Assembly (NCBI GenBank): GCA_043825875.1
Contig: JBDRRF010000076.1
Span: 160,001 to 224,000, forward strand
Direction: 5' to 3'
Source of the DNA: Pseudomonadota bacterium
GTDB lineage: Bacteria; Desulfobacterota; Desulfobacteria; Desulfobacterales; RPRI01
DNA: 64,000 nt
Shown: positions 12,222 to 20,781 of the stretch, piece by piece
Numbering within the stretch: the stretch's first letter is position 1
Layout: each line of letters opens with the position of its first letter
Program-made: the position numbers and the translations under genes
Notes under the pieces: model-generated
Database searches by the model: none
What the model saw: the letters and a program-made list of their open reading frames with translations, nothing else
What the model was told of the DNA's origin: nothing

Positions 12222-12297
12222 TCCCCAGTAGCTCAGCAGGTAGAGCAAGTGGCTGTTAACCACTTTGTCCGCGGTTCGAGTCCGTGCTGGGGAGCCA
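12222..12297 (+). tRNA. tRNA-Asn (GTT)
   Basis: 76-nt cloverleaf TCCCCAG...CTGGGGA-GCCA, anticodon loop ctGTTaa, GGTTCGAGTCC T-arm, encoded CCA. Confidence 0.97.
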
Positions 12298-12299
12298 AA
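12247..12299 (+). repeat. att core, left copy (3' part of tRNA-Asn)
   Basis: aagtggctgttaaccac...ggggagccaaa is identical to 20533-20585. Confidence 0.95.
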
Positions 12300-15384: not shown

Positions 15385-15484
15385 GGTCCAATTCTCCTAT
15401 TTTGTGTAATGGTTATTAAAATTTTGCCGTGTGAATGTGCCGACCGGAAAGGGTTTCGGTTGCCGGGCCTCACGGTTGCCGGAT

Positions 15485-15727
15485 TCACACGGGCAAACTG
15501 TTTAAAGCTGTATTTGCTAAACTTATTAAAAAATTAACGTGATTTATTTCTTCTTGGTAATCATGCTTTAGCTTTTCTCTTTTCTTAAATTCTTTATAAT
15601 CAAGATATCCGCTCGGCAATTCAGAAAGCTTTGCTCTGGCATCTGCAATCCGCTTGTTATAATTTTCAAGATCAAGAACTGCTTCTTGTGTTAATTGTTC
15701 AGAAGTATAAAAAATAGTATTCGACAT
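15485..15727 (-). CDS. Small coiled-coil hypothetical protein
   Basis: MSNTIFYTSEQL... helical ORF in the element's main operon. Confidence 0.6.
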   Translation of the reverse strand: MSNTIFYTSEQLTQEAVLDLENYNKRIADARAKLSELPSGYLDYKEFKKREKLKHDYQEEINHVNFLISLANTALNSLPV

Positions 15728-15789
15728 TTTTACTTTTATCTTTTTTGTTTTTAAAAAAACACACAAGTGTGAATCTGGAAGATTCGCAC

Positions 15790-15957
15790 CCTTCTTAAGA
15801 CCTTCTTAAAAACATACTTATAATACCTTCTTAGGGGGGAATTTTTTCCCATGTTTTGGAAAAAATCTCCCATGTTCAGGGAAAATTTTCCCGTCATTAC
15901 GGGGAATTTTTTCCCATGCTCTTTTTTGATCTTATTTATTACAGGGAATTTTTTCCC
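15790..15957. repeat. Iteron array / probable replication origin of the element
   Basis: Five GGGAATTTTTTCCC-like quasi-palindromes at about 15837, 15858, 15879, 15902 and 15944 (21-23 bp period, one 42-bp gap), plus three CCTTCTTA repeats, directly downstream of the rep gene. Confidence 0.75.
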
Positions 15958-15968
15958 ATAAAAAAGCA

Positions 15969-16685
15969 TCATACCGCCACCCGATCTCTTAACTTTTGGT
16001 TTAAATAACCCGGCTTCCAATGCTTTTTTGGAATAAGAAAAACCCGCCAAACTCTTTCGCCTTCATAGGTATCATATGGTTCAATTAAAAAGTTCTTTTG
16101 AAGGCTTTTTATAGCATCCCCCACACTTCGCCTGTTGATTCCGGCAAATTCAGCTAACCGCCCAATTTCAGCACTACACAACTCCCAGCGTCGTTTTGCA
16201 AAACGCTCTTTGAACTCAAGGTTATCATATTCAACGTTCTCATCTTCTTCGGCATCATAATATGAGAAATATCTCATTACTGGATAAAGTGCTTTTGCTG
16301 TTGGTTTGAGTTCTGACCATGTGCCGCTTCTAATAATCCCATTATAAAAGAAGAACGACCGGCCATTTTCACCCTTTTGAGGAAATTTCAATTTATAGTA
16401 CTTACCCCGTTTTCCGTGCCGGGTCAGAAAATACTCCCATGTAAACCCAGGAAAACCGTCAAGGTCTTTAATACCTTGCCGTACGGTTTTAATATCTAAG
16501 CGCGATAGTGCAGCAATTGTTTCTTGACCCGGAAATGCTTTACCGTGTTCATCACAATGACAAGCAATTACAGGAAGAACCGCCTTTGCTGCTGTTGATA
16601 TATTTGACCAGTTCATATTCTCGTTCCATCTTTTATCGAAACGAAAAAACAGCGTCCAATCAATATCAGCCGAAAAATGATACAT
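15969..16685 (-). CDS. Replication initiator-like protein with tandem winged-HTH domains
   Basis: AFPGQETIAALSRLDIKTVRQGIKDL (HTH_36-like) and internal duplication WSNISTAAKAVLPVI / WSELKPTAKALYPVM. ATG 16685 follows a GAGGG RBS; iterons lie downstream. Confidence 0.75.
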   Translation of the reverse strand: MYHFSADIDWTLFFRFDKRWNENMNWSNISTAAKAVLPVIACHCDEHGKAFPGQETIAALSRLDIKTVRQGIKDLDGFPGFTWEYFLTRHGKRGKYYKLKFPQKGENGRSFFFYNGIIRSGTWSELKPTAKALYPVMRYFSYYDAEEDENVEYDNLEFKERFAKRRWELCSAEIGRLAEFAGINRRSVGDAIKSLQKNFLIEPYDTYEGERVWRVFLIPKKHWKPGYLNQKLRDRVAV

Positions 16686-16787
16686 TATTATCGCCCTCAC
16701 AGCGCAACCGCCCCACAAGAAGTAATCGGAAGAGAAACGAGGTGTGAGGTTCCTTGCCTATCGGCGCGCGCCGCCTATCTCTTCCGA
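16686..16787 (-). ncRNA. Structured leader RNA upstream of rep (possibly int-alpA motif family), copy 2
   Basis: 10-bp outer stem TCGGAAGAGA/TCTCTTCCGA enclosing TAGGC..GCCGATA and a hairpin with loop CCTCAC, which is complementary to downstream GTGGGG and GTGAGG (the RBS). Confidence 0.65.
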
Positions 16788-16928
16788 AATTCAAAATCTG
16801 CAACTGGTTTTTGTTTTGGTTATTAAATGCGTCAAGTGAACGGTTTGAGCAACCCTGGGACATAGTATCAGGCTGACACATGCCGGAAGCTGAAAACCCG
16901 CTTCTTAGAACCTCTGGTGGCTTCATGC

Positions 16929-17126
16929 TTATGCACTCAACGACTTTTCAGGATCAATCCGGTGTGAGTCTATAAAAGACTCAATATCTTTAAGCCGGTA
17001 TCTGACAGAACGCCCGATTTTAATAAATGGAAGTCCACGGCTCATAAAACGATCATTTCGTAAAGTGAATACGCTTTTACCGATAATTTTTGCTGCTTCT
17101 TTTTCGTTGATAATTCCTAAGCTCAT
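16929..17126 (-). CDS. AlpA/excisionase-like HTH protein
   Basis: INEKEAAKIIGKSVFTLRNDR..GLPFIKIGRSVRYRL.DIE is a typical MerR-like HTH_17. AAGGAG RBS. Confidence 0.9.
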   Translation of the reverse strand: MSLGIINEKEAAKIIGKSVFTLRNDRFMSRGLPFIKIGRSVRYRLKDIESFIDSHRIDPEKSLSA

Positions 17127-17323
17127 ATTTACTCTCCTTTTTTCAATGTACTTCTTTTAAAAAACAAAAAAGCCACAAGATTATTTATCCTGTAGCTATA
17201 GAGTACTACTATTTTTTTCTAAGTCAATTATTTAAAATGATTATAGGAAGTTAGCTGATATTTTAAACTTTAGAATATCAGCTTTTCTTTTGATAAATAA
17301 GAGGGTTTTACAGTTATTAAAGT

Positions 17324-18370
17324 TTAAACCCTTTTCAGGTATAATGGTATATATATTAACCGGAGAGTGTTTTCGCTGAGGTATAAGTTGAACTTTTCAA
17401 TATGAACGGTATCTCTTGTTATGCTTTTAAGCAAAAAGGGGTTTCTTTTGATCTTTTGTAAAAAAGCATAAAGATCTATTGCAAAACCGCTATTGCTTTT
17501 AATCTTATAAGGTTTACTTCTCTCTTTTAATTTTATTTCACCTTTATTATTTGTAATTGCTTCATTTGCAAGAAAGTATTCTATAATTTTAAAAAGAATT
17601 TGATCTCTGGGATTAATTCTTATTTCTCGTTCTTTTTCTTTTTGCTTTATTTTTGCAATGCTTTTCTTTTTGCTTTCCAGGTATTTCTTTTCGGCTGCTG
17701 GCCGTAATTCATCACTTTCACTCATAAACCGATGTATTAAAAATGCGTCCATTTTTGCTCTATTAATTGTTGCTGCTCGTTTTGAGTACGTTCGGGCATC
17801 TTCAAGATACTTCATAGAAGAACTATCTTCTTCAAATCTCATACCTTCCACTAAAAAACTTTTTACAGAGAATATTGCCATTTCAATAGCAAACAGATTA
17901 AACAGTGCCTCCGAATCGATTTTTTCCCTCGCGCCTGGACTTACTCCATTAGTGCAAAGTGCCTCTCGCCATATTACCTCTTCTGGAATGCCACATTCGC
18001 CTTTCATCCCTGAATAGTTGTTACGATATCTTTTAAAAAGTGCTGCTGAAGCATTTAAACTATCCGTGTAAATAGAATCTGCTCCCCGTTTGTAAATAGC
18101 GCGTAAATCTTCAAGAAATTTTGCAGGAAAACCGATAAGGCTTTCAATAACCTTTGAGGAAGGCCAAAGAGAATTCCCTAAGCATGGCACGTTATCTTCA
18201 AGGTGAAAACAAACAATAAAATTTGTGCGGCATTCTCTTATAATTAAAAGGCATTCTTGGAAGTATTTACTTTCAATTTCCAAAGATTCCAACCGCTGAA
18301 TATCTCCAAATATCGGGCATCGTTCATTATAAAATTCTGTTTTATAAGGATTGTTTTCAAGTTTATTCAT
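17324..18370 (-). CDS. Hypothetical protein between integrase/TA and alpA
   Basis: 348-aa ORF with no recognised motif. Confidence 0.75.
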   Translation of the reverse strand: MNKLENNPYKTEFYNERCPIFGDIQRLESLEIESKYFQECLLIIRECRTNFIVCFHLEDNVPCLGNSLWPSSKVIESLIGFPAKFLEDLRAIYKRGADSIYTDSLNASAALFKRYRNNYSGMKGECGIPEEVIWREALCTNGVSPGAREKIDSEALFNLFAIEMAIFSVKSFLVEGMRFEEDSSSMKYLEDARTYSKRAATINRAKMDAFLIHRFMSESDELRPAAEKKYLESKKKSIAKIKQKEKEREIRINPRDQILFKIIEYFLANEAITNNKGEIKLKERSKPYKIKSNSGFAIDLYAFLQKIKRNPFLLKSITRDTVHIEKFNLYLSENTLRLIYIPLYLKRV

Positions 18371-18459
18371 TGCTTGTCCATTTGCAATGCGTCCTGAAAT
18401 TTATTGAGGGAAGCTGGCAGGACATTTCCAGCTTATCGGCCCGTCGGCCTATCCCTCAA
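18371..18459 (-). ncRNA. Structured leader RNA (possibly int-alpA motif family), copy 1
   Basis: Outer stem TTGAGGGA/TCCCTCAA enclosing TAGGCC..GGCCGATA and an AGCTGG/CCAGCT hairpin with loop TGTCCTG, which is complementary to downstream CAGGAC and GGACA just before the ATG. Confidence 0.65.
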
Positions 18460-18471
18460 AAGTATTTGTAA

Positions 18472-18822
18472 TCACATAAGCACCCGGTAATCAATCTTGA
18501 GTGCATCGCCAAATAACCGGGCATTTTTCCGGCCTATAACCCTTTTCCCGTTTTCCATTTCAGAAATGTGACGCTGAGGGATTCCGGTCAATTCGGAAAG
18601 TTGCCCTTGCGTCAAACCCTCTTTATGCCTTGCGCCTGATAGGGCGACACCGGGAGAATTGTCTTTAAATTCAGGAAAGGCATCTCTCCAGGGAATAGTA
18701 TCCGATGCATCCTTATAGCCGATAGACTTCATCAACTTGACGGCCTTATCTTTCTCCGACACCGGCCCGGAGAACGTTAATACAATGCTTTTAGTACGGC
18801 GCTTTTTCGTGTGTTCCAGCAT
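18472..18822 (-). CDS. XRE-family HTH antitoxin (HigA-like)
   Basis: ARHKEGLTQGQLSELTGIPQRHISEMENGKR. Downstream of and overlapping a RelE-like toxin. Confidence 0.88.
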   Translation of the reverse strand: MLEHTKKRRTKSIVLTFSGPVSEKDKAVKLMKSIGYKDASDTIPWRDAFPEFKDNSPGVALSGARHKEGLTQGQLSELTGIPQRHISEMENGKRVIGRKNARLFGDALKIDYRVLM

Positions 18823-19072
18823 AAACAACCTCGATCAATTGTATTTCATTATCAATAATCTGCCAAACCGCAACATAGGTCGGCTGACCCTTTTTTAAAT
18901 GGCAATGGTGCCTCTGATCTTTCAGTTTGCCATAATTTGGCCAGTTGCCCCTTATCGGCCCTTTGAGTTCAATCTCTCTCAACAGGGCAAAAAGAGATTT
19001 CTTCGCCCTGACAGGCAACCGGTCAATCATCTTGTTTATCCGCCTGGGAATTACCACCTGCCATTTAATCAT
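18791..19072 (-). CDS. RelE/HigB-superfamily toxin
   Basis: 93 aa, basic, WPNYGKL...HHCHLKKG.PTYV..W...EVVYAGTHEKAPY. Toxin-first order. Confidence 0.8.
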   Translation of the reverse strand: MIKWQVVIPRRINKMIDRLPVRAKKSLFALLREIELKGPIRGNWPNYGKLKDQRHHCHLKKGQPTYVAVWQIIDNEIQLIEVVYAGTHEKAPY

Positions 19073-19162
19073 GATAATAATATACCTTTTTTTAGTATCA
19101 AATCAAGATTTATTTTTTATCGTTTACATTTGCCGCTTCTTATCGGCCCGTCGGCCTATCCC

Positions 19163-20332
19163 TCAAACTTCGTTTGCTGCTTTAACCTTTGATGTTTTGT
19201 TCGCTGGCTTGTTTATTATATCCCCTGCAAGCGCTGAGGCTCTTTTCAATGCGTCATCTCGCAAGTGTGCATACCTTTGAGTCATTAGCGGGCTCTTATG
19301 AGTCAGAAGCCTTTGCAAGGTGTATAAGTCAACTTGCCCAGAGCTTGCCAACACAGACGCATAAACATGACGGAGCCCATGCATCGGCCTAAATCCAACA
19401 GGAAGTCCAGCCTTGTTTCGGATACGGTCAACGCTTTTTCTATTCAAAGTAGTTAAATGAGATCCTTCCCTTTGCCCTGGGAAAATCCATCCATTACTTC
19501 CTGCTTTTTCTATTTTTTCTAATACAGCTAACGCAGAGCCGTTTAAAGGGATACTCTGATCTTGCCCGCCCTTTGGGTTACGGATTGTAATAAAACCCCG
19601 CTCAAAGTCAATGTCCTGCCATTTTAACCGGAATATTTCGCCCCGTCTCATGCCTGTATAAAGTGCAAGTTTCATAATACTTGCCGTTGTCTGATCTTCA
19701 TCTCTCTCTAAAACAGCCAGTAAAGATTTAATCTGATATTCTGTTAGATCTTCTGTTGTTTGGTTGTTCAATCTTGGGATTTCAATTTTAAAAGTAATAG
19801 GAGAAGTCTTGCCCTTTTTCACGCCATAATTGAGAGTCCGGCGAAGGATTTCAAGCACCCTTGCTGCTGTTGTCTTATGTCCCTTTTTTAATAACCCCAA
19901 ACGGAGCCGATCAACATCAAGCGGAAGAAGTTGACCCGGTTCTTTATCGCCAAGCACCTGCCTTATGTGAACATCGAATTTTCTTTTCTCCGCATTTATA
20001 ATTTTATTGTATGGATTATTTTCACAGTATGAATCCCAAAGTTTCGCAATAGTCCATCGGGTATTTACAGCTTCCTTCCTTGCCTTTTCAACTTCTCTTT
20101 TTTCTGTATTTGAAGTTTGATTCCCTTCAATTTTTTGTGCCCGGATACGCGCTGCCTTTGCAGGAGTCATATCATCTTGGAATTGACGCCCCACTTTTTC
20201 ATCAATTGCTTTCCCTGCTTTCCGATAACGGATATAATAAATCCTTTCCGGCCGGCCTGTAACTATTCCCTTGCTTTCAATATAATATACTCCAGGATAT
20301 TTTGTCTTGATTCGTAAAAATGATTTTGGCAT
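19163..20332 (-). CDS. int: Tyrosine recombinase / site-specific integrase
   Basis: LYTGMRRGE, K in NPKGG, HGLRH, LLTHKSPLMTQRYAH catalytic motifs. Adjacent to the att repeat. Confidence 0.95.
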   Translation of the reverse strand: MPKSFLRIKTKYPGVYYIESKGIVTGRPERIYYIRYRKAGKAIDEKVGRQFQDDMTPAKAARIRAQKIEGNQTSNTEKREVEKARKEAVNTRWTIAKLWDSYCENNPYNKIINAEKRKFDVHIRQVLGDKEPGQLLPLDVDRLRLGLLKKGHKTTAARVLEILRRTLNYGVKKGKTSPITFKIEIPRLNNQTTEDLTEYQIKSLLAVLERDEDQTTASIMKLALYTGMRRGEIFRLKWQDIDFERGFITIRNPKGGQDQSIPLNGSALAVLEKIEKAGSNGWIFPGQREGSHLTTLNRKSVDRIRNKAGLPVGFRPMHGLRHVYASVLASSGQVDLYTLQRLLTHKSPLMTQRYAHLRDDALKRASALAGDIINKPANKTSKVKAANEV

Positions 20333-20532
20333 TTTAAACCTCTTTTTGTTCCCCACACTACACAATAATTATAACCACTGCTTTTTATTCCCCACACTAT
20401 TCCCCACACATAAATTAAATATACAGGTAATAAAAAGTAAGTCAATAAAAATAATACTCAATAATAATCTATTATTTCAAGGTATTTAATGACATAAATA
20501 AAAAGGAAGGTAAATTAAGGTAAATAGCTTAA

Positions 20533-20585
20533 AAGTGGCTGTTAACCACTTTGTCCGCGGTTCGAGTCCGTGCTGGGGAGCCAAA
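20533..20585 (+). repeat. att core, right copy (duplicated 3' part of tRNA-Asn)
   Basis: Identical to 12247-12299. Lacks the tRNA 5' acceptor strand and D-arm. Confidence 0.95.
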
Positions 20586-20591
20586 AATTAT

Positions 20592-20621
20592 AGCCCGTTC
20601 ATTAATTGAGCGGGCTTTTTT
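20592..20621 (+). terminator. Original tRNA-Asn terminator (displaced by integration)
   Basis: agcccgttca-ttaat-tgagcgggct followed by a T-run. Confidence 0.8.
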
Positions 20622-20781
20622 ATTGGATTTTATCATGTGATACGTATATATTAGTAATAGTTACGGTTTATAAATAACTTATGTTTTCGGAAATGCGTTC
20701 AATCCCATAAGGATGTATTGAAAAACCAAAATGGGAAAAGACGGAAATCGATACGAATTCAAATTCCCGTCTTTTTTTGTT

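Follow-up and report, generated by a model that had tools for sequence, protein, structure and literature searches.

Why should two copies of one structured RNA stand directly in front of two different genes of a single integrated island? The question is raised by a 64,000-nucleotide stretch of DNA from a bacterium of the Desulfobacterota (assembly GCA_043825875.1, contig JBDRRF010000076.1, positions 160,001 to 224,000 of the forward strand), which is called the window below and numbered from its first letter. On its minus strand one copy precedes a gene for a 348-aa protein (orf348) and the other a replication initiator-like gene (rep); an original prediction, made from the letters alone, described both as leader RNAs with a loop that pairs with the downstream ribosome-binding site. 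We find that the feature is real, that it is a member of a catalogued family, int-alpA (Rfam RF02996), and that its working unit is longer than the Rfam entry. Comparison of sequences and predicted folds leads us to propose, at a probability of about 0.6, that each copy is a portable throttle of translation that would act in cis.

Structure of the leader copies

Each copy begins with a three-way junction of helices P1, P2 and P3, after which come two stretches, T1 and T2, complementary to the loop of P3 (loop 3), and a hairpin, P4, that carries T2 in its loop at the position of the Shine–Dalgarno (SD) sequence. The parts are placed as follows (MFE, minimum free energy):

18404..18459, minus strand: copy 1 three-way-junction core, with P1 (18459-18452/18411-18404), UA, P2 with a GACG tetraloop (18445-18442), GAUA, and P3 with loop 3, AAATGTCCTG, at 18427-18418
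18390..18396, minus strand: copy 1 T1, CAGGACG, the loop-3-proximal complement and putative decoy (7 bp, one G-U, −8.9 kcal/mol)
18368..18389, minus strand: copy 1 P4 hairpin, CATTGC/GCAATG, with the ATG in its 3′ arm and T2 in its loop (MFE −5.7)
16726..16787, minus strand: copy 2 three-way-junction core, with P1 (16787-16778/16735-16726), the palindrome GCGCGC within loop 2 (16771-16766), and loop 3, AACCTCACA, at 16751-16743
16711..16717, minus strand: copy 2 T1, TGTGGGG (7 bp, −8.7 kcal/mol)
16690..16708, minus strand: copy 2 P4 hairpin, GTTGC/GCGAT, with T2 in its loop (MFE −6.5)
19139..19167, minus strand: truncated copy 0 (5′ arm of P1, P2 and junction), 29 nt identical to copy 1 (18460-18432)

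T2 of copy 1 is GGACA (18379-18375), a weak SD position that forms 5 bp with loop 3 (−5.4 kcal/mol) ahead of the orf348 ATG at 18370. In copy 2 it is TGTGAGG (16701-16695), which contains a GAGG SD sequence; here the helix with loop 3 is calculated at −9.6 and the duplex with the anti-SD sequence at −6.1, and the rep ATG is at 16685. The strand and coordinates first proposed, the outer stem, the GATAGGC-x-GCCGATA junction and hairpin and the second hairpin are thus borne out in both copies, and the pairing energies confirm two downstream complements of the second loop in each. The original prediction had also separated the two sites by a hairpin containing TTGC, which we reject: the interval between T1 and T2 barely folds by itself (0.0 in copy 1 and a weak −2.4 in copy 2), and TTGC is instead the 5′ arm of P4, pairing past T2 with a 3′ arm downstream of it (−5.7 and −6.5), so that P4, with arms that covary, encloses T2 in its loop.

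Among 1638 overlapping 45-mers of the island minus strand, the true sites counted, 17 match the performance of the actual sites with loop 3 of copy 1 and 11 with that of copy 2. In the homologue comparisons below, two sites are scored where non-overlapping pairings with loop 3, each of −4 kcal/mol or lower, lie within 45 nt downstream. The core folds have z values of −3.8 (copy 1) and −1.5 (copy 2). Loop 3 of copy 1 can also pair, through G-U, with both sites of copy 2 (−8.4/−5.7), whereas that of copy 2 cannot pair with the sites of copy 1; the two copies are therefore incompletely orthogonal.

The integrase stop codon (TGA, 19165-19163) lies inside copy 0, and since copy 0 has the same sequence as the opening 29 nt of copy 1, a two-gene cassette downstream of the integrase sits between two copies. 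This direct repeat of the 5′ half of the RNA on both cassette sides is what a cassette arriving through recombination or duplication at the RNA might leave behind. Copy 0 retains its GACG loop, which could kiss that of copy 1 on one transcript. Copy 0 and the partial cross-pairing, together with two features described below, a loop 2 that is complementary to itself and a stop codon at a fixed distance upstream, are additions to what was first noted here.

Family membership and homologues

The int-alpA motif reportedly originates from the Weinberg survey of 2017. Copy 1 scores 39.3 bits against RF02996 (gathering cut-off, 35.8), as the suggestion of int-alpA membership in the original prediction would have it, whereas copy 2 gives no match at the gathering score or at E-values up to 10. 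A model of our own, R1, built from 60 homologue cores with the window copies excluded and only roughly calibrated for E-values, recovers copy 1 (47 bits, E-value 1e-10) and also copy 2 (26.8 bits, 4.4e-5), with copy 0 at 11.4 bits (0.74) and no further match over the rest of the window. In the 60-row R1 alignment 12 of the 17 stem pairs are changed on both sides, and the covariation score was reached by none of 500 shuffles, P1 being out of register in some rows. Both copies have UA before P2 and GANA after it within the three-way junction, and the junction bases UAG and CGANAAG are nearly invariant in the family. Copy 1 moreover lies between the integrase gene and an AlpA/excisionase-like HTH_17 gene, the context that the family name describes, and copy 2 lies past the HTH_17 gene. 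By sequence and predicted fold, both copies are assigned to the int-alpA family, copy 2 lying beyond the reach of the Rfam model; that model's cut-off is passed by 12 of 20 homologue loci tested.

The Rfam entry is typed 'Gene; sRNA' and its consensus ends at T1, drawn unpaired, without P4, T2 or the start codon. The models for C4, c4-2, isrK and PK-repZ gave no match in 15400-20700 (where there are 15 Rfam matches at E-values up to 10), and no Rfam aptamer family is matched by the region. Searches for further copies in the genome returned copy 1 only, and as the same filtered searches missed copy 2 they are insensitive. No mechanism for int-alpA RNA was found in the searchable literature, in the covered parts of which 'int-alpA' is mentioned only as a table entry and in a gene order and 'RF02996' not at all; most subscription papers fall outside this coverage, and PMC5737381, whose main text does not carry the motif name, has a supplement outside it that may already describe loop–target pairing.

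Homologues were gathered with RF02996, which matched 27 of 151 related genomes (30 loci), and with three pattern searches through viral and genome collections that used junction and stem bases only; pooled, these gave at least 388 loci. A filter on structure, blind to loop 3 and to the sequence after the junction stem, left 206 instances, and removal of those more than 80 % alike left 131, which with copy 2 make up the main set of 132; its Rfam-derived loci are slightly biased by the model at loop 3 and T1, and it includes a few probable false positives. A metagenome scan (120 loci, 71 instances) supplied a held-out set of 34 further unique instances, and 166 denotes both sets joined. The homologues are related and not independent of one another. 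Carriers with a named taxon are found in, among others, Alphaproteobacteria, Desulfobacterota-type genera, Gammaproteobacteria, Planctomycetota, Spirochaetota, Nitrospinae and Myxococcales, and look-ups with one locus found related stretches in Escherichia coli and named phages.

Loop 3 and its two targets

Two loop-3 sites are present in 109 of the 132 cognate leaders, against 16 % when loops and leaders are swapped, 18.5 % when shuffled and 9/132 in upstream windows. The permutation z value for cognate against swapped pairing is −23, and the same comparison with loop 2 as a control gives 0.7; in the held-out set 22/34 leaders have two sites (20.6 % expected, z −8.9). The complementarity between loop and ribosome-binding site, on whose persistence in homologues the original prediction staked its case, is thus retained. 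The two sites are kept about equally: across the joined sets both are present in 127 instances, T1 only in 16, T2 only in 13 and neither in 10. The same bases of loop 3 serve both sites in 119/132 instances, and these 119 hold 78 distinct loop-3 cores. That loop 3 diversifies rapidly to serve as an immunity code was considered and found unsupported, the cores being mostly kept in 22 pairs matched by the identity of their upstream proteins (48–94 %).

The mean helix energy is −7.15 for T1 and −6.68 for T2, and in 92 of the 119 it is T2, not T1, that pairs more strongly with the anti-SD sequence. Loop 3 is still matched in the 20 of 136 instances in which T2 is a poor SD sequence, which shows that the SD sequence does not by itself account for the match. 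The linker from P1 (taken as 8 bp) to T1 is 5–12 nt long in 138/143 instances and contains 5 % G; a rough A-form estimate, which assumes stacking of P1 on P3 as suggested by the junction lengths, puts the minimum needed to reach loop 3 in cis at 5–8 nt. An RNase P-type processing mark after P1 was also considered and dropped, CCA following P1 in just 24/119. Apart from T1 and T2, the flanks show no cognate partner for loop 2, loop 3 or P1 (|z| ≤ 1.7), T1 pairs with the start region only at the level of chance (z −0.2), and no conserved alternative fold that breaks P1 was found in the homologue set, P1-breaking helices being at chance. In one homologue (L120, plus strand, 284-330) T1 and T2 lie inside a perfect tandem duplication of about 14 nt, which suggests that sites can regenerate by slippage.

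Hairpin P4 and the start codon

The arms of P4 around T2 also pair cognately (−3.55 against −1.28 when swapped, z −16; z −7 in the held-out set). A helix that encloses T2 is found in 131/136 instances, with a mean energy of −6.3 and loops mostly of 4–9 nt, and a start codon that opens a reading frame follows T2 in 109/119, after a median spacer of 7 nt.

Genes before and after the leader

Sixty of the 77 open reading frames (ORFs) found upstream of the RNA were scanned; 20 are tyrosine integrases, 11 are phage structural, packaging or lysis genes and 20 are without a match. Downstream, 26 of 107 ORFs have a Pfam match, namely 10 to HNH/NUMOD4, seven to replication-initiator-like families (among which we count DUF1376 and Lin1244_N, on our own assumption), three to integrases, three to methyltransferases and three to others. 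The RNA is found in phages as well as islands and is not tied to satellites. A subtype (L012, L037 and L008, and by N-terminal sequence also L029, L019 and L022) leads the integrase gene instead of following it.

Upstream stop codons lie at a preferred distance from P1. Upstream DNA was long enough to judge this at 154 loci. In 96 of them a frame of at least 150 codons ends within 150 nt, and the stop falls 6–14 nt before P1 in 64 of these and 1–5 nt before it in two. The preference is sharper for integrase-like frames (35/39 at 6–14 nt) than for other upstream frames (34/76), and the stops at the peak are mixed (TAA 25, TGA 23, TAG 16). A −10 box as the source of the peak was rejected, given the mixed stops and a promoter-like site in only 1/20 integrase-led leaders, as was readthrough into the downstream gene, there being no frame bias (30/27/23). 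Sigma-70-like promoter starts do occur in a subset of all leaders (23/139, against 7.7 when shuffled). According to PMC7518266, a terminating ribosome shields a stretch of mRNA, and a stable fold at its edge is proposed to insulate against re-initiation; P1 starts at or beyond the edge of that stretch. Copy 1 fits the spacing, the final stop of the cassette ending 13 nt upstream of it. A related island (L519, 2848-4848) has a comparable layout: its integrase is separated from the RNA by two small genes, whose final stop codon lies 8 nt short of P1, and a remnant copy past the integrase stop was not seen.

Homologues of rep are found in 6/400 genomes. That of L514 has the same leader, with two perfect sites and a GACG loop 2. 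The rep leaders of L511 (minus strand, some 90 nt upstream of the rep match, with an 8-bp target in a hairpin loop) and L513 (before a rep start near 1430) have three arms but neither the UA/GA junction nor such a loop 2, and they keep only the site at the SD position, clearly in L511 and less so in L513; neither has an Rfam match, and they are possibly a simpler relative or a convergent form. As to the remaining homologues, one leader (L510) looks replaced by repeats that give the impression of an insertion sequence, one homologue shows no leader and one is incomplete.

Self-complementarity of loop 2

A Watson–Crick palindrome of at least 4 nt occurs in loop 2 of 86/132 instances, against 38.9 among 2000 shuffles (standard deviation 5.0, maximum 54), and in 23/34 of the held-out set (12.5 expected, maximum 22); loop 3 is palindromic in 14/132. 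There are 28 different loop-2 palindromes, although AGCT and GGCC account for 35 of the 89 counted over a wider inner region, so that lineages have been counted more than once. A further 17/166 have a GACG tetraloop as loop 2. Copy 1 has the GACG type and copy 2 has GCGCGC, which is also the dimerisation loop of HIV-1. In Moloney murine sarcoma virus (MoMuSV) a GACG loop forms a stable kissing homodimer of two base pairs (PMC7357161). Pairing of loop 2 in cis with loop 3 or the flanks is at chance in the homologue set. Forty of the 166 loops are neither palindromic nor GACG, and two sites are present in 34 of these 40 compared with 94 of 109 palindromic ones; a tie between palindromic loop 2 and the presence of two sites was therefore discarded within the family.

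The host island and its genes

The copies belong to an island of 8.3 kb in tRNA-Asn, both ends of which are a 53-bp repeat of the 3′ part of that gene. Its minus strand carries an integrase, the two-gene cassette, orf348, the HTH_17 gene, an HTH_36 rep-like gene and a gene with weak likeness to terminase small subunits. Judged from this gene set (integrase, AlpA-like, rep, terminase-small-subunit-like), the island looks like a phage satellite. The features are:

12247..12299, plus strand: left attachment repeat, 53-bp identity with 20533-20585, in the 3′ part of tRNA-Asn (12222-12297)
20533..20585, plus strand: right attachment repeat, 53-bp identity with 12247-12299
19163..20332, minus strand: tyrosine integrase (PF00589, E-value 4e-30; phrog_1), start uncertain, TTG at 20365 also being open
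18472..19072, minus strand: inserted two-gene cassette, a 93-aa ORF (phrog_32175, of unknown function) and a 118-aa HTH_3 protein
17324..18370, minus strand: orf348, led by copy 1, no family assigned
16929..17126, minus strand: AlpA/excisionase-like HTH_17 gene (PF12728, E-value 2e-6; phrog_66)
16666..16926, minus strand: 86-codon ORF of doubtful coding status, which starts at the HTH_17 stop, crosses copy 2 and stops 17 nt downstream of the rep ATG
15969..16685, minus strand: rep, led by copy 2 (PF13730 HTH_36, E-value 1e-13; phrog_1032, replication initiation protein)

By its make-up the cassette might be a toxin–antitoxin pair, although family searches with the 93-aa ORF gave no toxin family and nothing informative beyond phrog_32175. 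The product of orf348 has no match in Pfam, PHROG, NCBIfam or PADLOC and no usable atlas match; four distant relatives (31–34 % identity) were found. Family searches and a look-alike search with the 86-codon ORF gave nothing usable; its translation, if it occurs, would unfold copy 2. No promoter of their own was found upstream of the window copies at a threshold of 8 of 12, and a promoter scan of the region was at chance (18 against 14.0).

Three further observations concern the surroundings. Directly 3′ of rep (15960-15830, minus strand) are iteron-like repeats of the ATGGGAAAAAATTCCC type, likely a replication origin. Terminator-like hairpins at 17197-17171 and 17283-17253, between orf348 and the HTH_17 gene, may split the transcription units of copy 1 and copy 2. 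A 248-aa ORF (14818-14072, minus strand) contains two internal repeats, each roughly 45 aa long, and weakly matches a head-maturation-protease PHROG (E-value 0.0015).

Proposed mechanism and alternatives

The helices, the covariation of loop 3 with both of its targets, P4, the place of the start codon and the spacing of the upstream stop are computational results. In the mechanism that we propose, the working unit would run from the three-way junction through a G-poor linker to T1, then to P4 with T2, the SD position, in its loop, and on to the start codon. In the off state loop 3 would kiss T2 and so lock the initiation hairpin; in a leaky on state it would rest on T1 as a taut pseudoknot, leaving only the weak P4 over the ribosome site for ribosomes to open. 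We infer that these pairings form in vivo, that the T2-bound form is the off state and that no outside ligand is needed; of the translational switch first envisaged, the cis element with its covarying alternative loop-3 pairings stands, and the switching itself belongs to this proposal. Since the T1 and T2 pairings are close in energy, the leader would throttle genes whose output a mobile element has to limit, here rep and orf348 and elsewhere HNH nucleases and integrases. Lying just outside the footprint of a ribosome that stops on the upstream gene, it would stay folded while that gene is translated.

Several points weigh against this proposal. A plain repressor would have no need of T1, and a plain cis switch leaves the self-complementary loop 2 unexplained. 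T2 bases fall within the predicted P4 stem in 74/131 instances, and T1 overlaps P4 by 1–3 nt in 69/131 and otherwise abuts or precedes it, so that either pairing could loosen P4 instead of locking it. The z values overstate the independence of homologues that are related, and the finding that, in 113 disjoint pairs, 49 of 61 altered loop positions are altered at both sites too is conditional on pairing and hence partly circular. No Pfam match was obtained for 81 of the 107 downstream ORFs, many of them cut by short flanks, so the notion of genes to be kept low rests on a quarter of the downstream genes. Copy 2 itself has no nearby upstream stop (the distance is 143 nt), is crossed by the 86-codon ORF and folds weakly (z −1.5).

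The behaviour of loop 2 invites a speculative addition to the cis switch, to which we lend limited credence, in which loop 2 would kiss its like and dock two leaders, the partner of a transcript being either another transcript or a junction fragment set free from one. Docking would shift loop 3 between T1 and T2, or occupy both sites by bringing in a second loop 3, and translation would follow the transcript level of the element; the leader might then be a protein-free sensor of its own transcript level, the loop-2 kiss tipping loop 3 from the decoy to the SD loop or providing the second loop 3. The excess of palindromes in both sets and the additional GACG loops speak for it, as do the loops of copies 1 and 2, the lack of a cognate cis partner for loop 2 in loop 3 or the flanks, and the leaders of L511 (clear) and L513 (less so), which are without such a loop 2 and keep only the SD-position site. 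On the other side, loops of neither type retain two sites equally often, AGCT and GGCC inflate the count through repeated lineages, and a dimer of full-length leaders has the same ratio of loops to sites as a monomer, the released fragment being hypothetical. The sharp peak of the stop-to-P1 distance would suit an activating pseudoknot as in the ColIb-P9 rep leader (PMC4705826), with P4 as the repressing element and a ribosome stopping before P1 as the trigger, or reset, of a loop-3 pairing that opens P4. The spacing re-established after cassette insertion (13 nt at copy 1, 8 nt at L519) and the abutment or overlap of T1 with P4 fit this version, which the T2 bases in the P4 stem and the T1 overlap also make possible. 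We nevertheless think it doubtful: with P1 at or beyond the shielded edge (PMC7518266) termination need not unfold it, a subset of leaders starts at a promoter-like site without upstream coupling, T2 as the SD position would be covered by loop 3, T1 has no cognate pairing with the start region, and copy 2 is without the stop spacing.

The nearly invariant junction bases, two near-equal states that should be easily tipped and the satellite-like look of the island would suit a sensor in which an outside factor (a helper-phage protein, an RNA or a metabolite) binds the junction and moves loop 3 between T1 and T2. A UA/GA junction with following adenines is, however, a common structural motif that does not require a ligand. 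That phages and islands from many phyla have the same leader before genes that are unrelated argues against a single helper factor, and neither a conserved alternative fold breaking P1, nor additional cognate pairing, nor an aptamer match was found; we regard such a sensor as unlikely, and with it the sensing of a helper phage that the original prediction had suggested. That the junction is excised as a stable small RNA whose variable loop is a specificity code silencing incoming elements, in the manner of the c4 and CI immunity RNAs, would accord with the Rfam typing as sRNA and with the 78 loop cores in 119 instances, and IsrK and the P4 CI RNA offer precedents (PMC4825925). We consider it very improbable, as C4, c4-2 and isrK are not matched at E-values up to 10, two-site targets are scarce within 45 nt upstream (cognate against swapped, z −1.4 over 30 nt), the constant length of the linker suits a cis geometry, and CCA seldom follows P1.

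The throttle that we favour thus gains a defined unit from this analysis, consisting of loop 3, two covarying targets, a hairpin with the SD sequence in its loop, a self-complementary loop 2 and a fixed distance to the upstream stop. The unit is widespread in integrated elements and phages, where the genes behind it include those for replication initiators, integrases and homing nucleases, and it may be a common means by which mobile elements hold risky genes at a low level; as a programmable part of about 100 nt it could serve synthetic biology. Were loop 2 to drive dimerisation, the mRNA leader would switch translation by forming homodimers; a search aimed at such switches showed no case among the titles and abstract openings it covered. 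Phages, satellites and homing nucleases would then share a portable negative feedback made of RNA alone, in which rep and orf348 of this island would be counted through different loop-2 types (GCGCGC and GACG).

Comparison with known systems

The closest relative is RF02996 itself, with which the leaders share the three-way junction and its bases, copy 1 scoring above the cut-off and lying between an integrase and an AlpA-like gene; they differ in that the Rfam model stops at T1, and the evidence here is for a cis leader rather than a free small RNA. In the rep leader of ColIb-P9 and other IncI plasmids (PMC4705826), a hairpin likewise masks rep initiation, an upstream loop pairs near the SD sequence and a stop codon lies close upstream; there the target is freed by a ribosome at the stop of a leader peptide, with an antisense Inc RNA as competitor for the loop. 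The leaders described here have two targets, with T1 mostly outside the hairpin and T2 the SD sequence itself, and do not match PK-repZ. No antisense RNA against the loop turned up, the regional promoter scan being at chance and no dedicated search having been made.

The c4 RNAs of P1 and P7, the CI RNA of P4 and IsrK of Gifsy-1 (PMC4825925; PMC2864571) are also small structured RNAs of temperate phages or satellites with loops complementary to their own transcript. They act in trans after processing or termination, with CI targets on both sides, whereas both targets here lie no more than 45 nt downstream. T4-type homing endonuclease genes have hairpins at their ribosome-binding sites (PMC2988022), so that RNA structure limits translation of a phage nuclease there as it may before the 10/107 downstream HNH/NUMOD4 genes here; those hairpins are described as single, stable and relieved by a late promoter, in contrast to a three-way junction with tertiary pairing to two sites. 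A stable fold that starts at the edge of a terminating ribosome is common to our leaders and to the structure described in PMC7518266, the latter being a generic signal in folding energy and the former a conserved family with loop–target pairing. Finally, the kissing loops of retroviruses provide a counterpart to loop 2 of copy 1, which has the GACG of MoMuSV (PMC7357161), though here in a bacterial mRNA leader whose dimerisation is hypothetical.

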